DNA from: a virus | Taxonomy: Duplodnaviria > Heunggongvirae > Uroviricota > Caudoviricetes | Length of the DNA stretch: 12,211 nt | Virus record (IMG/VR): IMGVR_UViG_2541047429_000046 | Direction: 5' to 3' (one strand) | In this document: one piece after another, positions 9,001 to 12,000 of the stretch | How positions within the stretch are numbered: position 1 is the first letter of the stretch | How the letters are laid out: each line of letters starts with the position of its first letter | Program-made: the position numbers

Positions 9001-12000
9001 GCACTCAGTGTTCTTTCGACGCATGGACGGGCGCTCCGGACGGGTACGCATTGGTGAGTTCAACAACCTGTTCGAACATATTGACCAACAGGAGTACCGC
9101 AAAATTCTGGCGGGCACTGAGCAGGAAATGCGCCTGAAAAAATTACGCGCAATGCAACGGAGGTGATACATGCATACGGCTTTTGAGTTCTGGGTTCGCA
9201 AGACATTCGGCAATCGCTACGACCTGACCCGTGATGTCGACGGCTTCTACTGCCGTGAAGTTGTGAAACGAATGTTTGACGTGTGGTGCCACTGCCGTGG
9301 ATGAAAGTTTTATGAGGTTGGCATGCAGACAATCATCTATCAGATAACCCCCAGCAAATGGTGTACGGAGAGAGTCCTTATTGCATCAACAGGGCTAAAG
9401 CCCGGCACCATCGAGCGGGCCAGAAGAAAGTCATGGATGCAGGGAAAAGAATACCGCCATTACGCTGTAGTGAACCGCCCCGGTTTTCCTGGAGAGTGTT
9501 TTATCTGTGAACTCAGGCTGCCAGATCATCGTTTCCGATGGAAGCATAATAAGCTTTTTCTGCTTCTGCCGGAGGAGTATGGCCCAGCCTTCCCAGCAAT
9601 CGTCGATTGTTATACCAGTCCACCCACGTTAGTGTGGCCAGTTCCACTTCTGCACGGTTTTTCCAGCTCTTACGGTGTATTACCTCCGCTTTGTAAAGAC
9701 CATTGATGCTCTCAGCCATCGCGTTGTCATACGAGTCGCCTGTACTCCCTGTTGATGCCAGTAATCCGGCTTCTTTTAGTCGCTCCGTATAGGCCAGTGA
9801 CACATACTGAGAGCCTTTATCGCTGTGATGGATGGTGCCAGACGGACGACGGGCCCACAACGCCTGCTCCAGCGCATCCAGCACGAATGTCGTTTCCATA
9901 GACGATGAGACCCGCCACCCCACGATGTATCCGGCAAACACATCAATGATAAACGCCACATAGACGAAGCCCTGCCATGTGCTGACGTAAGTAAAATCAG
10001 CCACCCACAGCTGGTCAGGTCGTTCTGCCACGAACTGACGGTTTACGCGGTCGCCTGCGGCAACGGCTTTCCGGCTGATGGTCGTACGGACCTTTTTACC
10101 CCGGAGAACACCGGCAAGTCCCATAACCGCCATGAGACGTGCCACTGTACATCTGGCCACCCTGATTCCTTCCCGTAACAACTGACGCCAGACTTTACGC
10201 ACACCGTACACCTGATGATTTTCATCGTATACGCGCTGTATCTCTCTCTTCAGCCAGTCGTCGTGCTGCGCACGGGCACTGCGTTTATCCGGATGATGTC
10301 GCTGTTGCTGACAATGGTAATACGTTGACGGGGCAATATGCAGTTCGCTGCATACCGGTCCGACCCCGTACTGCTCACGCAGCTTATCCAGCAGTGGCAT
10401 CATTTTTTCCAGAGGCGGTCGAACTCCGCCTTCGCAAAATAAGCGGAAGCCTGGCGAAGGATATCGTTACTGCGGCGCAGTTCACGATTTTCACGTTCCA
10501 GCTCTTTCAGACGCTGACGTTCAGCGCTGGTGAGCCCACCATCACCGCCCCCGGTATCCCGCTCATGCTGGCGAACCCAGACACGCAGAGTCTCCGGCGT
10601 ACAGCCAATCTTTGGGGCAATGGAACAAATTGCCGCCCACTGTGAGTCATATTCATCCTGACTTTCCAGAACCATACGAATCGCCCGCTGACGGACTTCG
10701 GGGGAAAAACGAGTATTTTTAGTCATCCTGTTTACCTCTTTCTCAGGGAGTTTAGTCTCCAGGATTTCCGGGGCGGTTCAGTAGAAGGTGATCCTGGGCA
10801 TTACAGTGAATGCCTGTACAACATCGAAGAAATTATGCGATGGATCGAAAACCAGAAACAACCAGGTGCCAAAAATGCAAGTTCCGGTTAACCTGTTAAT
10901 GCTCCTGGACGTCTGGGAGGTTTAATGAGTAACGCATCATACCCGACAGGCGTTGAAAACCATGGCGGATCACTCCGTATATGGTTTCACTATAATGGCA
11001 AACGTGTCAGAGAAAACCTCGGTGTTCCTGACACAGCCAAAAACCGGAAGATCGCTGGTGAACTTCGCACTTCCGTTTGTTTTGCAATCAGAATGGGGAG
11101 TTTCGACTACGCCGCGCAGTTCCCTAATTCCCCTAACCTGAAACACTTTGGTCTGGGAAAAAGAGAGATAACCGTTAAGGCACTTTCGGAAAAATGGTTG
11201 GACCTTAAGAAAATTGAGATTTGTGCGAATGCACTTAACCGTTACCAGTCAGTAATTAAAAACATGTTACCAATGTTAGGTGAAAAAAAACTGGTTTCAT
11301 CCATAACAAAAGAGGATTTACTTTTCGTAAGGAGAGATTTGTTGACCGGTTACCAAAAGCTTTCTAATGGAAAGACTTCTTCCATAAAAGGGCGCTCAGT
11401 GGTCACGGTAAACTACTATATGACAACCATAGCTGGAATGTTTCAATTTGCAACAGATAATGGTTATACCTCAGGAAACCCATTTAACGGTCTGGCTCCC
11501 TTAAAAAAGTCCAAGGTAAAACCAGATCCTCTCACCCGTGACGAATTTATTCGTTTTATTGAGGCTTGCCGTCATCAACAAACAAAAAACCTGTGGATTC
11601 TCGCTGTATACACGGGTATTCGTCACGGGGAGTTGGTATCGCTGGCATGGGAAGATATAGACCTTAAAGCAAGGACTATAACCATCCGTAGAAATTATAC
11701 AAAACTTGGCGAATTCACTCCACCAAAAACCGATGCAGGCACCGGAAGGACAATTCATCTGGTTCAACCAGCTATTGATGCTCTTAAAAGCCAGGCGGAA
11801 ATGACCATGCTTGGAAAGCAACATTCTGTAGAGGTGAAGCAGAGGGAATATGGGAGAACTGCTGTGCATAAATGCACTTTTGTTTTTAGTCCTCAGGTAA
11901 CAAAACAGCAGCAGTTGTCCGGACCTCACTACAAGGTTGACTCCATCAGGGAGTCATGGACAAGTATCTTAAAACGCGCAGGTCTGAGACACAGAAAATC

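Follow-up and report, generated by a model that had tools for sequence, protein, structure and literature searches.

An IS629 insertion in the excisionase gene of an mlrA Stx1-type prophage, carried on an apparent hybrid with an Sp3-type arm

RESULTS

The window analysed here, the whole 12,211-nucleotide stretch of the Caudoviricetes record IMGVR_UViG_2541047429_000046, carries a copy of the insertion sequence (IS) IS629 in the excisionase gene xis, immediately before an intact tyrosine integrase gene, int. The insertion is a simple IS629 transposition, with its target duplication intact and no adjacent rearrangement. Very probably, IS629 entered xis in a Stx1-type prophage located at mlrA (also called yehV) of Escherichia coli O157:H7, and the arm bearing the interrupted gene was later joined to an arm of the prophage Sp3 by a crossover within bet. 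Judged by sequence comparison, the window combines two prophages in one hybrid element, which is hence not itself a member of the Sp15/CP-933V group.

IS629 interrupts xis and leaves int intact

The insertion, the two parts of the interrupted gene and the integrase gene are arranged as follows.

9323..9470, plus strand: 5' part of xis, codons 1-49 and base 1 of codon 50; annotated in strains F7349 and FRIK804 as a pseudogene fragment of xisR
9467..9470, no strand: left GTAG copy of the target-site duplication; a single GTAG in empty sites
9471..10780, transposase genes on the minus strand: IS629 (IS3 family), 1310 bp; orfB-proximal inverted repeat at 9471-9495, orfA-proximal inverted repeat at 10756-10780
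9513..10403, minus strand: IS629 orfB, read in the -1 frame with respect to orfA; 296 aa, domains HTH_21, rve and rve_3
10329..10445, minus strand: programmed -1 frameshift signal, ALIL pseudoknot RF01497 (Rfam 121.5 bits; gathering score 50); slippery A6 run at 10403-10408
10400..10726, minus strand: IS629 orfA, 108 aa, HTH_Tnp_1
10781..10784, no strand: right GTAG copy of the target-site duplication; a single GTAG in empty sites
10785..10891, plus strand: 3' part of xis, from the rest of codon 50 to the stop, which lies 33 nt upstream of int
10925..12211, plus strand: intact tyrosine integrase int, 428 aa, with Arm-DNA-bind_2 and Phage_integrase domains

The IS begins with TGAACCGCCCCGG... 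at 9471 and finishes with ...CCGGGGCGGTTCA at 10780. Its ends are of the TG...CA form, and its terminal inverted repeats pair at all 13 of the 13 outermost bases and at 22 of the first 25. The start of orfB is the last A of the A6 run, in the -1 frame, and the same run closes orfA (...TGG AAA AAA TGA); the NCBIfam model transpos_IS3 scores 316 bits on orfB. An earlier note on this DNA had described an IS629-like, 1310-bp IS3-family element with intact orfA and orfB and a frameshift site, and its coordinates proved exact to the base. The name can now be sharpened, as the copy agrees at 1310 of 1310 positions with copies on many O157:H7 chromosomes and plasmids. On the basis of these identical copies, of the RefSeq label 'IS1203 family' and of its listing as IS629 in the paper on strain FRIK804, the inserted element is identified as IS629 itself. 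It shares length, sequence, ends, the orfA/orfB frameshift with ALIL, a 3-4-bp duplication and a preference for prophages with the resident IS629 of O157:H7 (synonymous with the IS1203/IS3411 group), from which it differs in nothing; the insertion site alone is particular. Used as a query, the copy found matches in 4,254 of the 5,426 complete E. coli genomes searched.

GTAG stands directly outside both IS ends, and the repeat cannot be extended on either side. We built the empty site in silico (1100 bp with one GTAG) and found it 100% identical over its full length in 40 of 40 listed genomes, EDL933 included. The best match reached at least 99% identity in 338 records, and in 445 a single match covered at least 80% of the query. 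Since empty sites hold a single copy, GTAG is counted as a true duplication, of the size seen at the other IS629 copies compared (3 bp: CCC, GAC, GTC; 4 bp: GGAG); published IS629 insertions likewise show duplications of 3-4 bp at 21 of 47 sites, with no sequence-specific target (PMC3271280). In related genomes the annotation of the empty-site loci reads 'xisR: excisionase family protein', and a tyrosine recombinase comes next. No IS-free allele with two GTAG copies or another reading frame was found among the empty-site matches in complete E. coli genomes. The earlier note had read GTAG as a 4-bp duplication left by simple transposition and had proposed a comparison with IS-free alleles, naming two outcomes that would speak against it: an uninterrupted locus encoding some other product, or a GTAG that is no duplication relative to an empty site. 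In the comparison, the uninterrupted locus encodes the 84-aa open reading frame (ORF) described below and GTAG is single. Both outcomes were thus looked for and neither was seen, and the insertion is therefore confirmed.

The interrupted gene matches excisionases

As it stands, xis runs into the IS and forms a 127-aa fusion ORF (9323-9706) of 49 native and 78 IS-encoded residues. Deletion of 9471-10784 in silico, which removes the IS and one GTAG copy, restores an 84-aa ORF (255 nt), as the earlier note had stated; its start is at 9323, and 33 nt separate its end from int. The restored product matches excisionase profiles: it covers Pfam DUF1233 (PF06806, 'putative excisionase'; E=2e-29) over its full length, model positions 1-70 of 70, and matches the phrog_539 excisionase (E=1.6e-37), while phrog_23175 covers its residues 39-84; a scan against NCBIfam matched no model. 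The unrepaired xis is regarded as a pseudogene because its DUF1233 match is limited to model positions 1-56. The break was mapped on Xis by the Pfam coverage and by alignment with PDB 2kvv ('putative excisionase', E=4e-5). The gene had been said to be split after codon 49; 49 whole codons are indeed kept, but codon 50 also retains its first base before the break.

The Stx1 phage of strain Sakai, VT1-Sakai, carries this 255-nt gene under the annotation xis, and its int has 100% nucleotide identity to the int of the window, so that the integrase gene is intact, as previously claimed. In VT1-Sakai a 20-bp att core starts 39 nt past the int stop. The last base of the window is the end of the int stop codon, and the att site and mlrA lie outside; in related genomes mlrA is the next gene after int, and the pair xis-int, with the xis stop 33 nt before int, thus occupies a prophage-end position. 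The assignment of the restored 84-aa product as the predicted excisionase of the mlrA Stx1-type prophage family is supported by these comparisons.

The closest characterized counterpart considered here is the Rac IntR/XisR (YdaQ) module of E. coli K-12, in which xis likewise lies directly upstream of int and the proteins belong to the same DUF1233 and Arm-DNA-bind_2 plus Phage_integrase families. Identity to the Rac proteins is 27% for the restored Xis (to XisR/YdaQ, E=4e-7) and 43% for Int (to IntR, E=8e-120). The two modules differ in their att site (ttcA in Rac, mlrA/yehV here), in the length of the excisionase (71 aa for XisR, 84 aa here) and in the interruption of Xis in the window. Rac XisR is an experimentally proven excisionase: it binds attR, and excision rises when it is overexpressed and falls about 10-fold when it is deleted (PMC4632033). 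By analogy with this 27%-identical protein, binding to an att arm and stimulation of Int-mediated excision are putative activities of the Xis studied here.

The xis::IS629 allele occurs in full-length Stx1-type prophages of O157:H7

Both IS junctions were found at 100% identity in only four complete genomes, all of O157:H7: F7349, F7508, FRIK804 and AR-0429. The four were recognised by their junction matches, and the loci of F7349 and FRIK804 were inspected. The allele is rare, four complete genomes standing against the 338 records with an intact site at 99% identity or more. In addition, a draft contig (GCA_003361355.1; 3.2 kb, ending inside the IS) is 100% identical to window 6943-10149, and a look-up of the 127-aa fusion protein gave an exact match in this contig only. 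In F7349 the prophage adjoins mlrA (yehV) and has a full early region with NinB, P, O (frameshifted), cII, cro-like, cI-like, cIII, kil, gam and a complete bet; the stretch of FRIK804 that was examined holds cIII, kil, gam and a complete bet beside mlrA. RefSeq annotates the two xisR halves of F7349 and FRIK804 as pseudogene fragments flanking a transposase. The supplementary IS629 table of the FRIK804 paper lists a copy at 3,034,174-3,035,483 in Phi804-16 without a counterpart in Sakai, and these coordinates are exactly those of the xis insertion; the main text of that paper does not link the copy to xis. The insertion is thus not new: four RefSeq genomes carry it in their annotation, and a published table includes it.

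Because the allele is carried by otherwise full-length Stx1-type prophages in these four complete genomes, it is probably older than the hybrid found in the window and independent of it.

The window joins an Sp3-type arm to an mlrA-prophage arm within bet

Two positions divide the window into its parts.

4359..4360, no strand: old Sp3 deletion junction between NinE and a 5'-truncated bet (bet'); early regulatory and replication region removed
4509..4558, no strand: crossover interval inside bet, with Sp3/CP-933K to the left and the mlrA/yehV Stx1-type prophage to the right

Positions 1-4558 are 100% identical to Sp3/CP-933K at ybhC-bioA (attLambda), including the Sp3 of FRIK804. This arm contains Q, the lipid A deacylase LpxR, a Ser/Thr phosphatase, NinG/F/E and the junction with the 5'-truncated bet, and the NinE/bet' junction is a feature of Sp3 in 296 genomes. 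In a three-way table of informative sites, the Sp3 allele is present at 4508, and an unbroken series of 21 mlrA-prophage alleles opens at 4559. Between 4559 and 12211 the window follows the mlrA prophage of F7349 and FRIK804, except for Sp3 alleles at 5251 and 5302, and this co-linear arm (from bet-exo to xis-int) is 99.9-100% identical to VT1-Sakai, F7349 and FRIK804. The genes gam, kil, cIII, N, cI, cro, O and P, looked for left of bet, are not present in the window; the NinE/bet' junction of Sp3 and the nin-Q genes stand there instead. An exact protein match to the truncated Bet was obtained at ordinary Sp3 loci only; this does not discriminate between the parents, as the differences between Sp3 and the Stx1 prophage within Bet are all synonymous.

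Each parent therefore accounts for one part of the window and departs from it in the other. The Stx1 prophage at yehV (mlrA), known as Sp15, VT1-Sakai or CP-933V, is 99.9-100% identical, as VT1-Sakai, to window 4360-9470 and 10781-12211, but its xis is free of the IS, and the window has Sp3 sequence left of bet. The Sp3/CP-933K arm, in turn, goes on to a lambda-type xis and a frameshifted int beside ybhC, whereas the arm in the window goes to the mlrA-type xis::IS629-int. Because its own early region is replaced by Sp3 sequence, the element is not counted as a member of the Stx1 prophages. The parents also differ in published behaviour: Sp3 was scored negative for repressor and replication and did not circularise, while Sp15 of Sakai, with an intact xis, circularises, replicates and is packaged (PMC2669165).

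The earlier note had taken the missing early genes as an internal deletion of the same prophage, a second lesion which, with an IS insertion abolishing excision, would lock the prophage in the chromosome. The split of xis and the absence of the early region from the window are what such an account would predict. However, the sequence up to and including the deletion junction is 100% identical to Sp3, a prophage at another site (ybhC/attLambda); in F7349 and FRIK804, the two loci inspected, the IS sits in an undeleted prophage; the three-way table of single-nucleotide differences contradicts it; and a knockout of the homologous Rac xisR is leaky (PMC4632033). The deletion belongs to Sp3/CP-933K and was joined to the IS-bearing arm by recombination inside bet. 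Two lesions accumulated by one decaying prophage are thus a wrong reading of an element that recombines two prophages, and we regard it as very improbable.

Possible origin of the hybrid

In FRIK804, bet'/exo of Sp3 lies on the minus strand (933,270-934,618) and bet/exo of the Stx1 prophage on the plus strand (3,028,951-3,030,410), and both prophages have the same opposite orientation in strain 7784. As these loci form inverted repeats, a single homologous crossover in bet would flip a segment of about 2.1 Mb that spans the terminus, and one product of the inversion would run from the Sp3 late genes through Q, LpxR, nin and bet'/bet to exo and on to xis::IS629, int and (mlrA), the order found in the window. 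The inversion is the simplest origin because the prophages are inverted repeats 2.1 Mb apart across the terminus, and we infer that the hybrid most likely marks such a prophage-to-prophage inversion. The isolated Sp3 alleles at 5251 and 5302 are compatible with mismatch-repair patches or with polishing errors. Prophage-bounded inversions across the terminus are documented in O157:H7 (PMC8743559, PMC7430833), among them a 1.15-Mb Sp6/Sp14 inversion in FRIK804 itself (PMC7430833). The known inversions likewise arise by recombination of inverted homologous prophage segments astride the terminus and yield chimeric prophages; the pairing of Sp3 with Sp15 through a crossover in bet was seen in 0 of the 5,426 complete genomes and is deduced here from one junction.

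Predicted effect of the insertion on excision

The full sequence of events can be proposed as follows. IS629 moves by a copy-out-paste-in route via a circular intermediate, and filling-in of the staggered target cut would have given the 4-bp GTAG duplication. The allele would have arisen in a FRIK804-like O157:H7 lineage, in a prophage otherwise of full length. The insertion removes about the last third of the conserved Xis domain together with the C-terminal tail, and places 1.3 kb of antisense IS between the xis start and int. In the parental full-length prophage, Xis function would thereby be lost and Xis-dependent excision would drop strongly, with int intact. Scans for promoters and terminators around xis-IS-int and the NinE/bet' junction gave nothing above shuffled expectation.

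The hybrid would have one lambda-type end and one mlrA-type end, and the early regulatory and replication genes are absent within the window. If the hybrid is real, it should be immobile with or without xis because its ends are mismatched and its early regulatory region is lost; its excision would meet several blocks at once, irrespective of xis, with the IS as one contributor and not the decisive one.

The claim that the insertion should abolish excision was too strong, given that deletion of Rac xisR lowers excision about 10-fold and does not eliminate it. The idea of a lock holds in so far as the IS splits xis. It fails in that the deletion comes from the other prophage, that loss of xis lowers excision and that the lesion may be undone. 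Precise excision of IS629/IS1203v in O157:H7 depends on IEE and transposase, is about 10^5-fold more frequent than in K-12 and can restore an interrupted gene (bioRxiv 10.1101/2023.06.07.543989); for this reason the xis lesion is considered potentially reversible.

Several points weigh against the proposed events. The leakiness of the Rac xisR knockout (PMC4632033) means that residual excision by Int alone could occur. The polarity of IS629 on int is uncertain, since an IS629 in stx2 of FRIK1275 did not abolish downstream transcription (PMC7430833). The window stops at the int stop codon on one side and left of Q on the other, so that the att sites, mlrA and the far end of the hybrid lie outside it. 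Finally, the hybrid was found in none of the 5,426 complete genomes: in no complete genome does a single locus account for 80% or more of the window, the crossover junction occurs in none at more than 98.4% identity, and a chimera across a 2.3-kb near-identical repeat is conceivable.

The last point leads to an artefact of assembly or polishing as another explanation, in which the assembler switched between the bet-exo repeats, about 98% identical, and the real genome holds a FRIK804-like Stx1 prophage with xis::IS629. The absence of the hybrid from all complete genomes would fit this, as would a switch point within a repeat common to both prophages, and errors of polishing through cross-mapping could account for the Sp3 alleles at 5251 and 5302. 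Yet the window spans the whole IS629, which implies an assembly that was finished or built from long reads; the same patchy pattern would be left by mismatch repair acting on a recombination heteroduplex; and prophage-to-prophage inversions are frequent in O157:H7 (PMC8743559, PMC7430833). We therefore consider an artefact unlikely, though by no means negligible, and retain the crossover between Sp3 and the IS-bearing Stx1-type prophage as the preferred explanation.

Other IS629 insertions in xis-int modules

A second IS629 lies in the same xis in strains NE 1169-1 (NZ_CP038324.1; IS at 1716-3025 of the fetched stretch) and NE1127, in the opposite orientation and with a 1-base difference. In NE 1169-1 its right flank begins at window 10784, 3 bp downstream of the insertion point in the window, and its left flank lies in an Ea22-like gene (window 7245), with about 2.2 kb deleted. 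Derivation of this allele from that of the window by recombination between IS copies is ruled out by the opposite orientation, the 3-bp shift of the junction and the 1-base difference between the IS copies; by these sequence features, the event is classed as independent of the window allele. The 3-bp coincidence of two insertions hints at a local IS629 hot spot.

Related insertions were seen elsewhere in this region. In the mlrA prophages of OkiPb01711 and E110019, the DUF4222 gene that directly precedes xis is broken by IS629-like elements of 96% identity, and another of 96% identity interrupts int in the mlrA prophage of the O145:H28 strain 12E115. All three are oriented as in the window, and the copies of OkiPb01711 and E110019 have no clean target duplication. 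For AH20K059, an IS629-like element appears near xisR in the match listing. The phage vB_EcoS_phi330 (PV189401.1) has the same xis-int module and an IS629 at 3003-4312 of the fetched stretch; as this copy lies in kil, with a 4-bp GGAG duplication, and xis is intact, the phage was rejected as a carrier of an IS in xis.

These insertions raise the question of whether IS629 prefers the xis-int module of mlrA prophages, or is selected there, and is thus not neutral, insertion immobilising a useful prophage, with stx1 kept and mlrA disrupted, in a manner reversible by IEE-driven precise excision. The independent insertion 3 bp away in NE 1169-1 and NE1127, the elements in the DUF4222 gene, near xisR and in int, the precise IS629 excision known in O157 (bioRxiv 10.1101/2023.06.07.543989) and the limiting effect of the mlrA prophage on biofilm formation (PMC5931665) are in keeping with it. 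Against this, IS629 targets no specific sequence and 62% of its copies lie in prophages anyway (PMC3271280), and the allele is rare, with four complete genomes against 338 intact-site records. Moreover, a handful of hits within a 2-kb region is about what chance predicts by a rough estimate that takes some 20 IS629 copies per 5.5-Mb genome and some 836 genomes with the module. Selection of the target thus appears highly unlikely, and the preferred view of a simple transposition into xis stands. A wider scheme is equally improbable: in it, xis codon 49/50 would be an IS629 hot spot where insertion and its reversal by IEE turn excision of the Stx1-type prophage off and on, and through it the recovery of mlrA and of curli/biofilm capacity, combined with a hitherto unseen 2.1-Mb inversion between Sp3 and the Stx1 prophage that permanently strands the stx1-side and effector-side halves.

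Further genes in the window

In the Sp3-type arm, the LpxR lipid A deacylase gene (1537-2496, plus strand) is a moron between Q and the nin region. The RefSeq annotation of identical Sp3 sequence has, beside this gene, a short remnant of an antitermination protein at about 2640-2711, and phage 434 carries the LpxR-region segment at 98.6% identity. In the other arm, the ORFs at 7581-7787 and 7765-8124 (plus strand) look like two halves of one frameshifted gene; the second matches PHROG 9263 only at positions 113-230 of 230, and RefSeq leaves it unannotated in the identical F7349 sequence.

DISCUSSION

By itself the insertion is of small import, as IS629 in O157:H7 prophages is well known to generate polymorphism among strains. 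The copy in xis marks a FRIK804-like sublineage in which the Stx1-type prophage should excise poorly, and so bears on the stability of stx1 and on the restoration of mlrA. Its recombinant context, Sp3 joined to the Stx1 prophage, is mildly unusual and belongs to a known class of O157:H7 rearrangements. The window appears to hold one junction of a large prophage-mediated inversion, and such inversions can strand prophage halves and shift replichore balance.

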